Source: Escherichia phage LHE83
Sequence record: OQ561750
Strand: one strand, 5' to 3'
Length of the DNA: 64,000 nt
Shown: positions 2,613 to 33,768 of the stretch, piece after piece
Position numbering within the stretch: the first letter of the stretch is position 1
Layout of the letters: each line of letters opens with the position of its first letter
Translations under genes and position numbers: made by a program
The notes under the pieces: generated by a model
What the model was told of the DNA's origin: nothing
Database searches by the model: none
Seen by the model: only the letters and a program-made list of their open reading frames with translations

Positions 2613-3277
2613 TAATATAATCTCTTATAGTAATATAAAGGAATCGTGCCGTTAACTGTACCACCTGCTAACGATTGGGTAGAGTTACCTAAGTATTCCC
2701 ACTTACCGTATCCAGCCCTTGGCTGTTGGACTATAGTATGGGAAATTGTACAACCCGATTGTTTATATGGTGAAAAAATATGATTCTGATAGTCATTGTA
2801 TTTAATATTCAAGGTAGATTGGTCTAAGGCATCAATAGCAGTTTCGGCCAAAATATAGCTATTAGCAATAGCGTCTAAAAACACATCATTTACTTTAGAT
2901 GCAACCAATACAGATGAATCGCCAACTAAGACCTCTACAGGAAGCCCAAACACTTTAATAATAACCGGGTCGCCAAGTTCACCGCCCGAAGAAATAGAAC
3001 CGGTAAATGTAATTTTATCAGATTGTTGGATAAATCCAGGTGCTCTGTTTTCTGTGGTAATAATAACAGAGTTCACAGGAAGCTCTGTTCTAAATGCAAT
3101 ATCATCTATTGCACTTTGGACCGTAGGAAAATAAACACCCTTCTGGGTTTGGTTTGCAGAAGGGCCACCAATAGGTCGTTGGTCAGCGACAGCAGTAGGC
3201 TTGTCACTGGTATAAGATAATTCCAAATAATCAGCTAAGCGGGATTTTAACCCGCTTTTCATTTCAGTTAAAGTCAT
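2612..3277 (-). CDS. 11: Baseplate wedge protein gp11
   Basis: 221 aa (T4 gp11 219 aa); start/stop overlap with gp10 and gp12; synteny. Confidence 0.7.
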   Translation of the reverse strand: MTLTEMKSGLKSRLADYLELSYTSDKPTAVADQRPIGGPSANQTQKGVYFPTVQSAIDDIAFRTELPVNSVIITTENRAPGFIQQSDKITFTGSISSGGELGDPVIIKVFGLPVEVLVGDSSVLVASKVNDVFLDAIANSYILAETAIDALDQSTLNIKYNDYQNHIFSPYKQSGCTISHTIVQQPRAGYGKWEYLGNSTQSLAGGTVNGTIPLYYYKRLY

Positions 3278-5088
3278 TATGCAATCCTCATCCAGCGATG
3301 AACAGTTAAGTATGGTGGTAGAGTATTAACCGGGATAGGAGTGGTTCCTTGAGCCTTATTAATACCGGCTTTATCTTCACGATATTTTGTATAAGCTGGT
3401 CCTTGTGAATCAGGGTCAACTAAACATCCACCTACAAAAATAGGGCCATCGTTATCAGCAATAAGGACTTTATCATCGGTATTAAGTTCAGGGATATTCT
3501 CATATTTCAAATTAGCCACATGAGCACCACCAGTACCACCGGCAGTTGACTGTGGAATACCAGCAGAATCCAGATCGTTATTATTTGCATTAAACAAAGA
3601 AGCCGCGTCTGGAGACCAACCTACCAAGAACACATCAGATAAACGCTTCCATGAACCAAAGCCCATATAAGTTTTAGGGTTATTAGGGTTCACCGTGTTC
3701 TCATAGATAGTTCCTATAGGGTAAATTAAATCAAAAAATGTTGCTGCTGTGTCTATTGTAATATTAGACGAGGCAACCGGCTCAACGTTAGGTGCAAAAG
3801 GATTATCTACATCAGTAATACGAACCTGGCCTGTTATATTAATAGATGGGCCTTTAGAAATATAGATGTTGTTGGTGTAATCCAAAATCTCATCAATTTC
3901 CATGGTAGTACCGATATCATTATTGTACCAAATTACTGTAAGAATATCACCATGTTCAAAGTTACGTCCAAATTCGATGGATTCAATCTTGTCTTCAGGA
4001 GTCAAATTAAAAATATAGTCTGATTTAGATTGGGTCCATTGACCACCTGCATTAAAACACTCGGTAGCAGTACGACCATCAGCACCTTCACAATAAAACG
4101 AAGGAAGTCCTGCCGTACCAGCTTGATGAAGTAATGTGCTATTCAGCATAACTTGGCAAGCATTTGGGTTGATAGGACTATTAACAGAAATATTCAAATC
4201 TGCGGCCGATATAACATGCGAAGTATTCAAATCAGCCACGAAAGAAGAACCAGGAACAGAAACGTTTTTAGTCAATTCTGAACTTTGGATTGTTATATCA
4301 CGGCGGTTATAAGAACTGCGCCATTGAGCAAGCCCGTCATTATATGATTTGATAATAACAGTATCACCTGCTTCACAAGGATATTTTAAACGGATGTCTT
4401 TACCATTCAAGGCAACCAATTCACCTGGTTGAGCACCCGGAGAACCGAACTCTGCAGTAGCCGCATCAAAAATATCATCAACACCGTAGAACAAATTGTT
4501 ACCACGTTGCGAAACGCTTAAACTTGCTACGTTATAAGAAAGCCCTGGGAAAATGTCTAGAAAATCTGTTTGGCCTTCAGTGGCAATAAACTGCTTAGTT
4601 GCTACAGTAGCGAGGTCGTTATTTGGAATACGGTTTACTTGCTTATTTTCAACGTATTCCCATCGTCCTGGGGCACAATAAACTAATTCAAGGTCCGAGA
4701 AGTTGCGAGCAATTTCTACTTGAGTAGCTGAACCCTTAATGGTATCACCCGTGGCAGGGATTAGGGTTACAGGGTTAGCTTGCCATGAGGAATACACGTC
4801 ACGTACACGGATAACAAAGTTATATTCTTCAGGAGAGCCTTTAGGAAGCTGAACGTTAATACGCCCACCTTGAGTATTAAGGGTATAGCTATGACCCATT
4901 ACGGCGTTCAACAAAGCACCATCTTCAGTAGAATGTTGTTTCCAAGCACCTGCTGCATGTGGGTTATTGCCATCGCCTAATTGGTAATAAAGCTCATTGA
5001 AGTTGTTATTAATTTTAAGACCACCTGCGCGCAGGTAATCACCGGACCCGTCATCAACAGCGGAACCTACTTTTAAGTCTTGTTTCAT
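3277..5088 (-). CDS. 10: Baseplate wedge protein gp10
   Basis: 603 aa (T4 gp10 602 aa); synteny, translational coupling to gp9 and gp11. Confidence 0.7.
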   Translation of the reverse strand: MKQDLKVGSAVDDGSGDYLRAGGLKINNNFNELYYQLGDGNNPHAAGAWKQHSTEDGALLNAVMGHSYTLNTQGGRINVQLPKGSPEEYNFVIRVRDVYSSWQANPVTLIPATGDTIKGSATQVEIARNFSDLELVYCAPGRWEYVENKQVNRIPNNDLATVATKQFIATEGQTDFLDIFPGLSYNVASLSVSQRGNNLFYGVDDIFDAATAEFGSPGAQPGELVALNGKDIRLKYPCEAGDTVIIKSYNDGLAQWRSSYNRRDITIQSSELTKNVSVPGSSFVADLNTSHVISAADLNISVNSPINPNACQVMLNSTLLHQAGTAGLPSFYCEGADGRTATECFNAGGQWTQSKSDYIFNLTPEDKIESIEFGRNFEHGDILTVIWYNNDIGTTMEIDEILDYTNNIYISKGPSINITGQVRITDVDNPFAPNVEPVASSNITIDTAATFFDLIYPIGTIYENTVNPNNPKTYMGFGSWKRLSDVFLVGWSPDAASLFNANNNDLDSAGIPQSTAGGTGGAHVANLKYENIPELNTDDKVLIADNDGPIFVGGCLVDPDSQGPAYTKYREDKAGINKAQGTTPIPVNTLPPYLTVHRWMRIA

Positions 5089-16557: not shown

Positions 16558-16565
16558 TATAAATA
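16558..16565 (+). promoter_or_regulatory. T4-type late promoter (TATAAATA) for gp4
   Basis: Exact TATAAATA 25 nt upstream of gp4 ATG, followed by AGGAGG SD. Confidence 0.6.
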
Positions 16566-19298: not shown

Positions 19299-19991
<693 letters not shown>

Positions 19992-20002
19992 TTTAAAAAG
20001 GT

Positions 20003-20031
20003 GTTTACAAGGTCTATAGGCATGATACTAT
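20003..20031 (+). promoter_or_regulatory. Early promoter (GTTTAC-N17-TACTAT) with conserved TATAGACCTATCAA box
   Basis: -35 GTTTAC and -10-like TACTAT at 17-nt spacing, 37 nt upstream of ATG 20069. Confidence 0.55.
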
Positions 20032-20068
20032 AGACCTATCAAAACAAACTAACCAAACGGAAATCAAA

Positions 20069-20293
20069 ATGAAAACTTATCAAGAATTTATTACCGAAGC
20101 TAAAAGACATGAAGATGAACTGCCAATTGTTACAAAAACCTTTGATGGCACACTGGCTGATTTTAAAAAAGTCCCTAGTGATAAGCTTGCTAAATTGACT
20201 GGCTCTATCAATGAAAAAGATGGCAAGGTCACGTTTTCTGCTGGCGGCATAGCCAATCTTAAAAAACTTTTGAAAGCCGCTGGCGCTGAATAA
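20069..20293 (+). CDS. Internal-protein-like capsid protein (ipI locus), N-terminal capsid-targeting sequence MKTYQEFITEA
   Basis: 74 aa; N-terminus matches T4 internal protein CTS (MKTYQEFIAE); located next to 57B like T4 ipI. Confidence 0.6.
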   Translation: MKTYQEFITEAKRHEDELPIVTKTFDGTLADFKKVPSDKLAKLTGSINEKDGKVTFSAGGIANLKKLLKAAGAE

Positions 20294-20294
20294 A

Positions 20295-20567
20295 ATGAAA
20301 TCATACCAAGAATTTATCGCTGAATCTATTCTTAATGAAGAAGTAAAAATTAACAAATCTGTTAAGACCATGATTGATAATATAAATCATCTCTATAACA
20401 TCGATTTGACTAATCACGTAACTTTAGGCAATAAGCGAAACTTTTTTGTTTTTGATACTTCAGAACTCGACCAGAATCAAATTAACAATATTGAACGTTT
20501 TGCTAATGAAAAAGGGCTGCGCCACGAGACGGCTGGTTATAAAAAATATGCAATTTATTTAAAATAA
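20295..20567 (+). CDS. Second internal-protein-like gene (CTS MKSYQEFIAES)
   Basis: 90 aa; same CTS-like N-terminus, divergent body; 1-nt spacing after previous gene. Confidence 0.55.
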   Translation: MKSYQEFIAESILNEEVKINKSVKTMIDNINHLYNIDLTNHVTLGNKRNFFVFDTSELDQNQINNIERFANEKGLRHETAGYKKYAIYLK

Positions 20568-20569
20568 TT

Positions 20570-20599
20570 GTTTACAACGGGCTTTAGTGATGGTACTAT
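20570..20599 (+). promoter_or_regulatory. Early promoter (GTTTAC-N18-TACTAT)
   Basis: Motifs upstream of ATG 20636 with conserved CTATCAAAACAA box and GGAGAATAAA SD. Confidence 0.5.
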
Positions 20600-20635
20600 A
20601 GCCCTATCAAAACAAATGAGTGATTGGAGAATAAA

Positions 20636-20821
20636 ATGAAACGTTGTGAATTAATTAGAAATGCTACTGCACTGGCCGCTGTTACTGCTTTTGGCTTTAG
20701 TATGTTTGCAGGATTCATGCTCGATATGCTTTCAACTTCCGAGAATATAATCTCTTTAGTAGTGGCATTCTTAATTGGTTCAATTTCTTTCGTTATGGAT
20801 AAAATCTCTAAAGGTGAATAA
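20636..20821 (+). CDS. Small membrane protein (61 aa)
   Basis: Internal ATG after SD GGAGAA; hydrophobic TM-like segments. Confidence 0.45.
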   Translation: MKRCELIRNATALAAVTAFGFSMFAGFMLDMLSTSENIISLVVAFLIGSISFVMDKISKGE

Positions 20822-21228
20822 TGAACATTGAATATTATGTATATGCGGATTATGAAAATAATCCGTCTAAAGATGAAGATAACCGTTTAGGTGTAGATGC
20901 TTTTGAATCCCCTGCTGCAGCTTGGCAATGGGTTGAAAGTACCGATATTCCTTACCGTTATATTGAAGTGGTAGACCAAGCAGGAAACAAGTATCCTAAG
21001 GAAGCATATGTTCCTTCTGGTAAAGTAAATTTCCTTCTGTTCGCAGGTGATAACTATTATCCACGTGGCGGCTATACCGATTTAATCGCTAAAGCATTTT
21101 CTGAAGACGAACTACGTGATATTATTAACGAAAATGAGAAAAAGCCTCGTTACGGTTCTAATCGTTTTGACTGTGACTGGTGGCAGATTGTTAATGCTAA
21201 TACCCATACTATTGTAGACGAGGGTTAA
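20821..21228 (+). CDS. Hypothetical protein (135 aa)
   Basis: ORF with TAATG overlap to upstream gene; no recognised motif. Confidence 0.45.
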   Translation: MNIEYYVYADYENNPSKDEDNRLGVDAFESPAAAWQWVESTDIPYRYIEVVDQAGNKYPKEAYVPSGKVNFLLFAGDNYYPRGGYTDLIAKAFSEDELRDIINENEKKPRYGSNRFDCDWWQIVNANTHTIVDEG

Positions 21229-21519
21229 ATGCTATACGTTAAGGTTACTAATCCAGAGAATGGCTATAATTCAGACCAGGTTGCAGCAGAGCTACTGATT
21301 CGCAACTTTGGCAAAGGTGCTGTGCTTGATGTCCAACAGGTTAATATTGGTCGTAGTTCAAGCGACGTTAAACTAAAAGTTAATGGTCGCCGTTATAATT
21401 CTGTTAACTTTACTTTCTACACCGCAACTGAAAACAGATTGATCGAATACGACATCTTTAAAAATCCTTTGAAGATTGCTTCTATTAAACTTGATTACAT
21501 TAATATGTGGCCACAATGA
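21229..21519 (+). CDS. Hypothetical protein (96 aa)
   Basis: ORF immediately after previous stop (TAAATG). Confidence 0.45.
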   Translation: MLYVKVTNPENGYNSDQVAAELLIRNFGKGAVLDVQQVNIGRSSSDVKLKVNGRRYNSVNFTFYTATENRLIEYDIFKNPLKIASIKLDYINMWPQ

Positions 21520-21693
21520 ATCAAATTTGACCAGACTATTCCTAAAAATAGTAATATGCTTTAAGAGTAATGTGTTATTATTACTCTATCATTAATACCC
21601 TCTATTACCAAAGGTTCTTCCCTCAAAGAACCTTTCATAATAGACAAGGTCTATTAATCAAACTTACTTTACTTAATTTTATTTGAGGTGTTT

Positions 21694-21965: not shown

Positions 21966-22039
21966 GGCCCTGTAGCTCAATGGTTAGCAGCAGTCCCCTC
22001 ATAAGGGAAAGGTTACCGGTTCAAATCCGGTCTGGGCCA
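21966..22039 (+). tRNA. tRNA with anticodon CAU (Met, or Ile2-type reading AUA as in the T4 tRNA-Ile)
   Basis: 74-nt cloverleaf: 7-bp acceptor stem (one U-U mismatch), anticodon loop CUCAUAA, T-arm ACCGG-TTCAAAT-CCGGT; position matches T4 tRNA cluster. Confidence 0.65.
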
Positions 22040-22080: not shown

Positions 22081-22746
22081 ATGTTCCATTACACTTATAA
22101 AATAACAAACAAAATTAATAATAAAATCTATATAGGCGCCCATTCAACCGAAAATTTGAATGATGCATATTTTGGTTCTGGTAAACTCTTAAAAAGGGCC
22201 CAGGCCAAATACGGTATAGAAAATTTCTCTAAAGAAATATTAGAGTTCTTTGACGATAAAACCTCTATGTTTGAGTCAGAAAAGAATATTGTGACTAAAG
22301 AGTTTTTAAAGCGCCCCGATGTTTATAATTTGAAATTAGGTGGTGAAGGTGGTTGGGACCATTTAAACACTGAAGAATATTTAGATAAAAAGAAAGAAGC
22401 TTCCTTAAAAGGAGTTGCCGCTTTTAAAACCAGATTTGAGAACGACCCAGACCTTAAAGAAAAATATCGTAAAATGGGTTCAGAAAAGTTTAAACAACTT
22501 TGGGATAATCCTAAGTATAGAGAGAAATTTTCAAATACTAAATCTTTCTTGGGTAAGACCCATTCAGATGAAACCAAAAATAAAATGAAAGAATCTCACG
22601 CCAGAAATAAACATCAACAAGGTGAAAATAATTCCGGATACGGAAAAATGTGGATTCATTCTTTAGAAGAAAAAGTTTCTAAACGTATTAACAAAACGGA
22701 TATTATTCCTGAAGGTTGGAATAAAGGTCGTAAAATAAAATTTTGA
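22081..22746 (+). CDS. segB: GIY-YIG homing endonuclease, SegB-like, inserted in tRNA cluster
   Basis: 221 aa; N-terminal HYTYKITN...NKIYIGAHS...YFGSGK GIY-YIG pattern; basic NUMOD-like C-terminal repeats; same location as T4 segB. Confidence 0.6.
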   Translation: MFHYTYKITNKINNKIYIGAHSTENLNDAYFGSGKLLKRAQAKYGIENFSKEILEFFDDKTSMFESEKNIVTKEFLKRPDVYNLKLGGEGGWDHLNTEEYLDKKKEASLKGVAAFKTRFENDPDLKEKYRKMGSEKFKQLWDNPKYREKFSNTKSFLGKTHSDETKNKMKESHARNKHQQGENNSGYGKMWIHSLEEKVSKRINKTDIIPEGWNKGRKIKF

Positions 22747-22751
22747 ATTAC

Positions 22752-22826
22752 GTCCCGCTGGTGTAATGGATAGCATACGATCCTTCTAAGTTTGCGGTCC
22801 TGGTTCGATCCCAGGGCGGGATACCA
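22752..22826 (+). tRNA. tRNA-Arg (anticodon UCU), CCA encoded
   Basis: 75 nt; 7-bp acceptor stem, anticodon loop CUUCUAA, T-arm CCTGG-TTCGATC-CCAGG, 3-prime ACCA. Confidence 0.7.
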
Positions 22827-32016: not shown

Positions 32017-32613
32017 ATGAAAACGTATAAAGAATTTATCGCCGAAGCTTCTGTAGGAAAGGTCCAAGGCATTAATAAAGATGAGTGGACTTACAAAGGA
32101 AACGGCGTTGACAACCCAGGAAACGGTTTTGACGCTAAAACAGCTCCTATTGAACGGTATTTAGCTACAAAGGCTTCTGATTTTAAAGCTTTCGCCTGGG
32201 AAGGACTTCGCTGGCGTAACGACCTAAATATTGAAGCTGATGGACTTAAATTTGCCCATATCCAAGATGTTGTTGCTAGTAACTTGGACGCAGCTTTTGT
32301 TAAAGCTGACGGTGACCTTCGTCGCTGGAATTTAAAACTGTTCTCTAAACAGAAAGGTCCTGTATTTGTACCTAAAGCAGGTAAATGGACTATTGATAAT
32401 AAATTGGCTAAGGCGGTCAACTTCGCCGGTCTTGAATTTGCCAAGCACAAATCAGCATGGAAAGGTCTCGATGCAATGACTTTCCGTAAAGAATTTGCCG
32501 ATGTTATGGCTAAAGGCGGCTTTAAGGCAGAAATAGATACCTCTAAAGGTACGTTTAAAGACGCTAATATTCAGTACGCTTACGCCGTTGCTAATGCTGC
32601 CCGTGGTAATTAA
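32017..32613 (+). CDS. ipIII: Internal protein III-like (CTS MKTYKEFIAEA)
   Basis: 198 aa (T4 IPIII 194 aa); CTS N-terminus; position e-ipIII-ipII-denV as in T4. Confidence 0.6.
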   Translation: MKTYKEFIAEASVGKVQGINKDEWTYKGNGVDNPGNGFDAKTAPIERYLATKASDFKAFAWEGLRWRNDLNIEADGLKFAHIQDVVASNLDAAFVKADGDLRRWNLKLFSKQKGPVFVPKAGKWTIDNKLAKAVNFAGLEFAKHKSAWKGLDAMTFRKEFADVMAKGGFKAEIDTSKGTFKDANIQYAYAVANAARGN

Positions 32614-32654: not shown

Positions 32655-32957
32655 ATGAAAACCTATCAAGAATTTATCACCGAAGCGCGAGTAAGTGCGG
32701 GTAAATTAGAAGCCGCCGTAAATAAAAAGGCCCATTCATTTCATGATTTGCCCGATAAAGACCGTAAGAAACTTGTAAGCCTTTATATTGACAAAGAGCG
32801 TATTCTCGCTCTCCCAGGCGCTAATGAAGGTAAACAGGCCAAGCCTTTGAATTCTGTCGAAAAGAAAATTGATAACTTTGCTTCTAAGTTCGGTATGTCT
32901 ATGGATGACCTTCAGCAAGCGGCTACCGAAGCAGCTAAAGCAATTAAAGGTAAATAA
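32655..32957 (+). CDS. ipII: Internal protein II-like (CTS MKTYQEFITEA)
   Basis: 100 aa (T4 IPII 100 aa); CTS N-terminus; synteny. Confidence 0.6.
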   Translation: MKTYQEFITEARVSAGKLEAAVNKKAHSFHDLPDKDRKKLVSLYIDKERILALPGANEGKQAKPLNSVEKKIDNFASKFGMSMDDLQQAATEAAKAIKGK

Positions 32958-33017
32958 CGGTTTATTTTTACGATAGTTGTGATATAGTGTTCTCATACAA
33001 ACATGGAGAACACTAAA

Positions 33018-33425
33018 ATGACTCGTATCAACCTTACCTTAGTATCTGAATTGGCTGACCAACACTTAATGGCTGAATATCGTGAATTACCACGTGTTTT
33101 CGGTGCAGTTCGTGAACGTATTGCCAAAGGGCAAGGCTTCTCTGATATCCCTAAAGACTTCCGCCTTGGTTCAGGGCACGTCAAGTTCTTTTATGACAAA
33201 ATTGGTTTTTTGTTCTTGCGACAAAATGCAATAATTGAGGAACTTCTGAAGCGTGGTTACCAGATTCAAAATACCCATGTAGACGTAGCGGATATTCCAT
33301 TACGGCTTATGAACGATTTCACTCCAACCGAAGCTGATATAGCTTTAAGCCAAGCTCGTCTGGACGAAAAAATTGCACAGCGTCCTACCTGGTACAAACA
33401 TTATGGCAAGGCTATTTACGCTTAA
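33018..33425 (+). CDS. denV: Endonuclease V (pyrimidine dimer DNA glycosylase)
   Basis: Starts [31 protein letters not shown] and ends [15 protein letters not shown], closely matching T4 DenV; 135 aa from internal ATG. Confidence 0.85.
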
Positions 33426-33468: not shown

Positions 33469-33768
33469 ATGAAAACTTATCAAGAATTTATCACAGAAGC
33501 CAAAGCTCCTAAAGCATTTCAAATTGGAGTTCAAGGCAATTTAGACCAAGAATATGTTGATGCTATTGTAGCAAGCCTCGGTAAACAGGGCGTACAAGTC
33601 GATTTTGTTGATTTTACCAAAGGTAATACTTTTAATATTGTTACATCTAAAGGTTCTTTAGCTAAAGTTAAAAAGGCCTTTGGCGTAGCACAAGCATATG
33701 AAATCGACCACTCCGAATTAGAAAATAAAGGTCGCCAGAACACAATTAGAGGTTCTGGTTCTTTCTAA
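33469..33768 (+). CDS. Additional internal-protein-like gene (CTS MKTYQEFITEA)
   Basis: 99 aa; identical CTS-type N-terminus, unrelated body; downstream of denV. Confidence 0.55.
   Translation: MKTYQEFITEAKAPKAFQIGVQGNLDQEYVDAIVASLGKQGVQVDFVDFTKGNTFNIVTSKGSLAKVKKAFGVAQAYEIDHSELENKGRQNTIRGSGSF

Follow-up and report, generated by a model that had tools for sequence, protein, structure and literature searches.

Heads of bacteriophage T4 contain about 1000 internal protein (IP) molecules embedded in the DNA (PMC3012670). These IPs share only an N-terminal leader, and the T4 leader is sufficient to pack foreign proteins into T4 heads (reviewed in PMC3012670). One member, IPI*, is injected and blocks the GmrS/GmrD (GmrSD) enzyme of E. 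coli CT596 (PMC3012670). According to Silas et al. (2025), T4 Ip1, Ip2 and Ip3 inhibit different GmrSD enzymes and do not cross-protect, and GmrSD variants were proposed as the targets of the proteins encoded at both Ip loci (PMC12373910). In this study, we analysed a stretch of 64,000 nucleotides from Escherichia phage LHE83 (sequence record OQ561750), hereafter called the window, and focused on two adjacent genes at positions 20069 to 20567. The two genes are ip8 and ip9, members of the polymorphic T-even internal-protein set, and both their identity and their class are hardly in doubt. The locus as a whole is best explained, and quite probably correctly, as T-even Ip8 and Ip9 in the ipI slot of a Dhakavirus, which would be packaged in the head, injected and directed against host defence. 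The mechanism is modelled on T4: class membership and delivery are well supported, while the activity is a hypothesis.

The ip8 and ip9 genes in the ipI slot

The first open reading frame (ORF), ip8, is located on the + strand at 20069..20293; it encodes 74 amino acids (aa) and begins MKTYQEFITEAKRHEDEL / MKTYQEFITEAKRHEDELPIV. The second, ip9, follows on the same strand at 20295..20567, encodes 90 aa and begins MKSYQEFIAESILNEE / MKSYQEFIAESILNEEVKINK. A single base separates the ip8 stop from the ip9 start (TAA-A-ATG). In PHROGs, Ip8 was assigned to phrog_8765 'internal virion protein' (E=4.7e-27) and Ip9 to phrog_7673 'internal head protein' (E=6.5e-56), each as a precursor. The original prediction, made from the sequence alone, had described two ORFs with the T4 capsid-targeting leader at exactly these coordinates, with bodies unrelated to each other, in an ipI-type location. 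All three points were borne out, as detailed below, and its statement that T4 IPI is injected and inhibits GmrSD matches the literature (PMC3012670).

The slot is bounded by two conserved genes on the + strand. On the left, 57B (19536..19991) was assigned by Pfam to the Acb1 phosphodiesterase family (PF23474, E=8.4e-59), which acts against the cyclic oligonucleotide-based antiphage signalling system (CBASS); its homologues in VR5, IME08 and QL01 are annotated as similar to T4 gp57B. On the right, a trna.4 homologue (20636..20821) encodes a predicted membrane protein of 61 aa (phrog_1692, E=4.9e-32) and is annotated trna.4 in relatives. The gene order is as in T4, namely 2, 3, 1, 57A (PF17594), 57B, ip8, ip9, trna.4, trna.3, trna.2 and the tRNA genes, so that ip8 and ip9 fill the slot held by ipI in T4. 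It should be pointed out that 57B is labelled 'RNA ligase' in RefSeq relatives, yet matches Acb1 strongly, and that the IP cassette directly adjoins this known counter-defence gene.

The source phage is a Dhakavirus (JS98-like T-even phage). Its 651-bp locus is 99.4% identical to that of QL01, and the surrounding 3.5 kb shows 99.5% identity to the same phage. In BLASTP, Ip8 was 83.8% identical to RB15 Ip8 (CAA84465; 74 aa, E=4e-45) and Ip9 was 76.7% identical to RB15 Ip9 (CAA84463; 90 aa, E=8e-53). Orthologues of Ip8 are annotated as Ip8 in QL01 and VR5 (RefSeq: "similar to Ip8 of RB15"), and those of Ip9 as Ip9 in QL01, VR5 and IME08 (RefSeq: "similar to RB15 and K3 Ip9"). RB15 carries both orthologues with the same leader in the same slot between 57B and trna.4. 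However, its gene order is ip5-ip9-ip7-ip8, whereas here only ip8-ip9 are present and an Ip7-like gene lies elsewhere (33469). A tblastn search located the body of Ip8 in 107 phage records and that of Ip9 in 199; thus ip8 and ip9 are real genes. The Ip8 and Ip9 groups, with RB15 type proteins, were reportedly named by Repoila et al. in 1994. Since both genes have established names and annotations and formed part of a recent functional screen, the annotated and published record gains nothing from the finding itself. In IME08 (L002, NC_014260), where only Ip9 is annotated, an ip8 orthologue (tblastn, 89% identity) lies at ~3077-3301 without annotation in GenBank/RefSeq.

The leader is the feature that places both proteins in this class. 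When all six frames of the 64 kb were scanned for MK.Y.[ED]F, five matches were obtained, all on the + strand and all at the first codon of an ORF: ip8, ip9, 32017 (an IPIII orthologue), 32655 (an IPII orthologue) and 33469 (the Ip7-like gene). This distribution is not due to chance. Compared with the leader of T4 IPII/IPIII (MKTYQEFIAEA), Ip8 (MKTYQEFITEA) matched at 10 residues out of 11 and Ip9 (MKSYQEFIAES) at 9 out of 11. The leader-coding DNA of the two genes forms a 50-nt direct repeat with 74% identity. We then compared these leaders with a set taken from 36 IMG/VR loci that encode a 57B relative, which comprised 54 leader-bearing ORFs, 51 of them unique. The consensus was M-K-T/S-Y/F-x-E-F-I/L-x-E-A/S, and Ip8 and Ip9 fit it at every conserved position. 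Among the 51 unique ORFs, positions 1, 2 and 7 (M, K, F) were invariant; Glu occupied position 6 in 50 and position 10 in 48, while position 8 was I or L and position 11 was A or S in 44 each.

The same survey points to the processing site. In 43 of the 51 ORFs the first (L/I)-x-E ends at residue 10, and on the motif alone Ip8 and Ip9 do likewise (residues 8-10). Cleavage by the prohead protease gp21 is therefore predicted after Glu10, at ITE|A in Ip8 (leader MKTYQEFITE, coded by 20069..20098, + strand) and at IAE|S in Ip9 (leader MKSYQEFIAE, 20295..20324, + strand). The predicted mature Ip8 comprises residues 11-74 (64 aa, 6.8 kDa, isoelectric point (pI) 9.35) and starts at Ala11 (AKRHEDELPIVTK). 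The predicted mature Ip9 comprises residues 11-90 (80 aa, 9.4 kDa, pI 8.0) and starts at Ser11 (SILNEEVK). Ip9 has a second gp21-type site, LNE at residues 13-15, which is not conserved. In Ip8, a second (I/V)-x-E that fits the gp21 cleavage rule, INE at residues 47-49 (20207-20215 in the window), contains E49, which is nearly invariant in the family alignment.

Beyond the leader, the two proteins are unrelated. From residue 12 onward, the bodies of Ip8 and Ip9 showed no relationship to each other or to T4 IPI, IPII and IPIII (local-alignment z-scores versus shuffled sequences of -1.5 to 0.4). In alignments with T-even IPs, the leader was thus common to Ip8, Ip9 and the T4 proteins and the bodies were not, the RB15 Ip8 and Ip9 being the orthologues. 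Neither protein reached any family threshold in Pfam, and PDB sequence profiles gave nothing below E=0.3 for either one. A weak Pfam match to DUF7412 (E=0.035) covered only the N-terminal residues 1-35 and was rejected. Both bodies are nevertheless well conserved within their own families and predicted to be folded. In an alignment of 15 Ip8 sequences, 40 of the 74 columns were invariant, and AlphaFold2 predicted a compact domain with a predicted local distance difference test (pLDDT) score of 75.3. The core domain of Ip9 (residues 22-90, 20358..20564, + strand) was predicted as a helix-strand-strand-helix-strand-strand fold with a mean pLDDT of 86.8.

Two elements of about 50 nt bracket ip8-ip9 and are 84% identical over 38 nt (downstream copy 20579-20616). 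Each contains TTTACA, a spacer of 16 or 17 nt, a TG-extended TACTAT and an inverted repeat overlapping the -10 box. The upstream element (20001..20048, + strand) has its -35 box at 20004-20009, its -10 box at 20026-20031 and a perfect 10-nt inverted repeat at 20010-20019 / 20028-20037; its RNA fold reached -17.9 kcal/mol (z = -4.3 versus shuffled sequences). In the downstream element, which is the trna.4 promoter (20567..20616, + strand), the -35 box lies at 20571-20576, the -10 box at 20594-20599 and the stem at 20579-20589 / 20594-20604, and the fold reached -16 kcal/mol (z = -2.7). They resemble the PeSL (promoter-early stem-loop) elements that Arbiol et al. (2010, PMC2839356) and Comeau et al. 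(2014, PMC4122927) described for T4-type phages, and they fit the PST/T4-type promoter consensus TTTACW-N17-TAYWAT (PMC4122927). Like the PeSL elements, they combine a TTTACA-N16/17-TACTAT promoter with an embedded hairpin in two copies around variable ORFs, and so belong with them. No intrinsic-terminator-like site was found in 19400-21600, and the hairpins are therefore not canonical terminators. T4 ipI is flanked on both sides by the same kind of early-promoter/hairpin element. IPI thus agrees with the present genes in its slot, its promoter/hairpin flanks, the ITE|A-type site at the end of its leader and its approximate size.

Exchange of internal-protein bodies among phages

The boundaries of the variable segment were located by comparison with L008, a 170,523-bp JS98-like genome. 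Its 57B protein is identical to that of the window, and the DNA upstream of the slot is 96% identical. The two sequences are homologous across the upstream element and for 23 bases into ip8. At 20091, within the leader codons, the homology ends; it is regained at 20561, just short of the ip9 stop, at the downstream element. In place of ip8 and ip9, the L008 slot holds a leader-bearing ORF that starts with GTG immediately downstream of 57B, together with an unrelated IP of 97 aa. The exchanged unit is therefore the IP body, with junctions in leader-coding DNA on one side and in the downstream promoter/hairpin element on the other. In this respect the locus differs from PeSL elements, one recombination boundary being in leader-coding DNA and not in the PeSL. 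The GTG start of the L008 ORF (L008:3453-3662; VKSYKEFLTEAMESASS...) overlaps the 57B stop, and its body belongs to the commonest cluster of the survey (cluster 1).

Across the 36 loci linked to 57B, zero to three leader-bearing ORFs were present between 57B and trna.4, and their bodies fell into at least 18 unrelated clusters. The scan considered ATG starts only and missed the GTG-started L008 ORF, so these counts are lower bounds. We rejected the idea that Ip8 and Ip9 form an obligate pair, for each occurs alone in many phages or with other partners. Ip9 was found without Ip8 in L015, L019, L026 and L031, an Ip8-like gene without Ip9 in L033, and Ip8 beside a different, unrelated IP in Klebsiella phage F48. 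Hence Ip8 and Ip9 are independent modules, and these sequence comparisons show that ip8 and ip9 behave as cassettes that can be exchanged. IP bodies would be swapped, added and reordered among phages by recombination between conserved leader-coding DNA and the promoter/hairpin elements on either side. The 'ip7 protein' of Mosigvirus OLB35 (L007:1558-1791; P0061) is itself a mosaic, in which an Ip7-like N-terminal part is joined to an Ip9-like C-terminus; its last ~30 residues are nearly identical to the C-terminus of Ip9 (FNNIQRFANDKGLRHEPGGYKKYAIYLK). This suggests that recombination may also occur within IP bodies. The annotated start of this protein (GTG/Val) lacks the leader and may be wrong.

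Three further leader-bearing genes lie downstream in the window, all on the + strand. The IPIII orthologue (32017-32613, 198 aa) gave a local-alignment score of 850 against T4 IPIII (z = 126), and the IPII orthologue (32655-32957, 100 aa) one of 420 against T4 IPII (z = 60). T4 IPII and IPIII (Ip2 and Ip3), which inhibit the GmrSD enzymes of ECOR21 and ECOR17 respectively, have a leader nearly identical to those of Ip8 and Ip9 and the same proposed delivery, but their bodies are unrelated to Ip8/Ip9 and they belong to a different locus, for which this phage has its own orthologues. The Ip7-like gene (33469-33768, 99 aa) encodes a product with 50% identity to RB15 Ip7. The gene is located outside the ipI locus, where RB15 Ip7 sits, so that the five IP genes of this phage are spread over three sites. 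Upstream of the Ip7-like gene is an ORF of 140 aa (33003-33425), which we take to be a denV homologue by its position and size only. Between tRNA-Met (21966-22039) and tRNA-Arg (22752-22826), the tRNA cluster is interrupted by a gene for a GIY-YIG/NUMOD3 homing endonuclease (22081-22746, + strand; PF01541, E=1.6e-5), an arrangement resembling that of segB in T4. No such endonuclease gene is annotated between the tRNA genes of the VR5 and IME08 loci.

The Ip9 core outside T-even phages

When the mature Ip9 body was used as a tblastn query, homologues of its core were also found in siphophages. Kagunavirus JSSK01 gp64 (L005:3007-3225) has 72 aa and 53% identity (E=2e-29), and an unannotated ORF of Seuratvirus ECP2304 (L006:~2492-2716) has 44% identity (E=1e-20). 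These proteins (72-74 aa) lack the leader. In a multiple alignment they begin opposite residue 22 of Ip9, past the leader and a linker of 11 residues, and the shared core corresponds to residues 19/22-90. They have in common with Ip9 a 69-residue core and its invariant motifs (G-N-K-R..F.F, R-F-A, L-R.E and G.K), with 20 invariant positions at about 50% identity. They differ from it in having neither leader nor linker, in residing in siphophage genomes at a putative early-operon position, and in being annotated at most as hypothetical. In all four Kagunavirus-sized contigs (L046-L049:4001-4219), the homologue is the first gene of an operon diverging from helix-turn-helix (HTH)/primase-helicase genes, and variable small ORFs follow it.

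A profile search of 1.84 billion representative proteins returned only 27 relatives of Ip9 at E<=0.001. Some bear the leader and come from other T4-like phages, some are leaderless with 67-79 aa, and in others the domain is embedded in a leader-bearing protein of 237 aa or in one of 861 aa. The latter (P0070; L044:8001-10586), from a phage-like metagenomic contig, has the Ip9-core-like domain at residues 660-735 (E=6e-6) in an uninformative context. A match to a LysM-repeat protein of 776 aa (P0069) was spurious, as it summed seven repeats. In BFVD, an unnamed viral protein of 535 aa contains the Ip9 core fold (E=2.4e-6).

On this evidence Ip9 would consist of a leader, a linker and a portable domain that is used elsewhere as a cytoplasmic, probably early, protein. 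The leaderless core in other phages supports a host-directed rather than a structural role, and it weakens the assumption that the target is specific to glucosyl-5-hydroxymethylcytosine (glucosyl-hmC). One might go further and regard the Ip9 core as a portable anti-host module independent of T4-type heads, to which the T-even phages fused a packaging leader for ready-made delivery; at present we consider this idea tentative. If it is true, the Ip9 target would be a host factor relevant to phages of differing DNA chemistry and not a glucosyl-hmC-specific enzyme, and leader capture would be a general route by which early counter-defence proteins become injected ones in T-even phages. The link between the Ip9 core and siphophage proteins was not found described in the part of the literature that was accessible to us.

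Proposed function and alternative explanations

By analogy with T4 IPI, IPII and IPIII, the ten-residue leader would target both precursors to the scaffolding core of the prohead, and gp21 would then cut after Glu10. The small and mildly basic mature proteins would remain beside the DNA inside the head and accompany it into the cell. Because of this joint entry, injected Ip8 and Ip9 would be present in the cell before any phage gene is expressed. Once inside, each would, on the model of T4 Ip1-3, most likely bind and block a single, specific defence protein of the host; the leading candidates are GmrSD-family variants, which are type IV (modification-dependent) restriction enzymes. We regard packaging and injection as likely, and an anti-defence role as rather favoured. 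That the target is specifically of the GmrSD type is plausible, though we would put it at somewhat below even chances.

Several observations weigh against this proposal. When ip4-10 were assayed against representatives of 15 GmrSD groups, the authors "identified no new inhibitory interactions" (PMC12373910), and an apparent interaction of ip8 with the CLS_018/019 system failed to repeat (PMC12373910). Both bodies are unlike IPI* and all solved structures, in sequence as well as in fold, which sets both proteins outside the IPI* family. A search of the accessible literature for virion proteomics of Ip8/Ip9 gave nothing relevant, nor were reports of their presence in virions, cleavage or injection found there, and a whole-word search for Ip8/Ip9 returned unrelated papers only. 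The late promoter TATAAATA is not found beside ip8/ip9, its nearest + strand match being at 16558, and the only promoter directly upstream of ip8 is an early (sigma-70-like) one; late expression must therefore be assumed to occur by read-through, as for T4 ipI. Finally, siphophages with the leaderless Ip9 core are not expected to carry glucosyl-hmC DNA, which is awkward for a target that recognises T-even modification only. Candidate injected anti-restriction effectors, as the original prediction called these proteins, represent the standard hypothesis of the field, which has been partly tested for ip8/ip9 without success (PMC12373910).

The negative screen should be read with its design in mind. 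The GmrSD panel was assayed with the glucosyl-hmC phages T2, T4 and T6 (PMC12373910), and a 2026 paper inferred from synteny that Dhakaviruses carry an arabinosyl-5-hydroxycytosine pathway (PMC13326640). As the DNA chemistry of Dhakaviruses is predicted to differ from that of the panel phages, the enzymes relevant to this phage may be unsampled. On the other hand, Ip8 and Ip9 also occur in Tequatroviruses (RB15 and RB33), which weighs against this caveat.

The strongest alternative, possible but in our view improbable as compared with its negation, is that Ip9, and perhaps Ip8, are injected antagonists of a host defence or process unrelated to type IV restriction dependent on glycosylated hmC, with the Ip9 core serving siphophages as an early cytoplasmic protein. 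It would account for the leaderless homologues in JSSK01 and ECP2304, for the constant position of the Kagunavirus gene at the head of its operon, for the occurrence of the domain with a leader, without it and within larger proteins, and for the absence of a GmrSD phenotype of ip9 (PMC12373910). However, all three characterised T4 IPs target GmrSD enzymes. A type IV target may also apply to the siphophage homologues: some GmrSD-family enzymes are said, by the title of one report (PMC13390438), to be promiscuous towards DNA modifications, and Seuratviruses carry modified guanines.

It is much less likely that Ip8 and Ip9 are non-specific head components, which neutralise DNA charge or fill the core, have no dedicated host target and owe their diversity to relaxed constraint. 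The mildly basic character of the small mature forms, the abundance of IPs in T4 heads, the non-essential nature of the ip genes (PMC12373910) and the screen of 2025 that found no target (PMC12373910) would all fit such a role. Yet the invariant positions in both bodies, the compact domains predicted for both proteins, the Ip9 core in phages without a T4-type head and the specific targets of all three T4 IPs speak against it. It is very unlikely that the leaders are vestigial and that the proteins are made early and act unpackaged in the cytoplasm of the producing cell, as the early promoter upstream, with no late promoter nearby, and the leaderless Ip9 core elsewhere might suggest. The leader is nearly identical across at least 18 unrelated body families whose bodies have diverged completely, which indicates that it is itself under selection. 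Moreover, the early-promoter arrangement is shared with T4 ipI, whose product IPI* is packaged and injected all the same.

Among phage products, injected internal proteins are the first that host defences encounter, and they explain the resistance of T4 to specific type IV enzymes. The one lead here that may be new is the relationship of the Ip9 core to leaderless proteins of siphophages; these homologues offer simpler experimental systems, and they argue for a search beyond the GmrSD enzymes directed at glucosyl-hmC DNA. Both Ip8 and Ip9 have a wide distribution, which includes Klebsiella, Salmonella and Shigella phages of therapeutic interest. Their targets, once found, would extend the map of inhibitors and defences and aid the prediction of host range.
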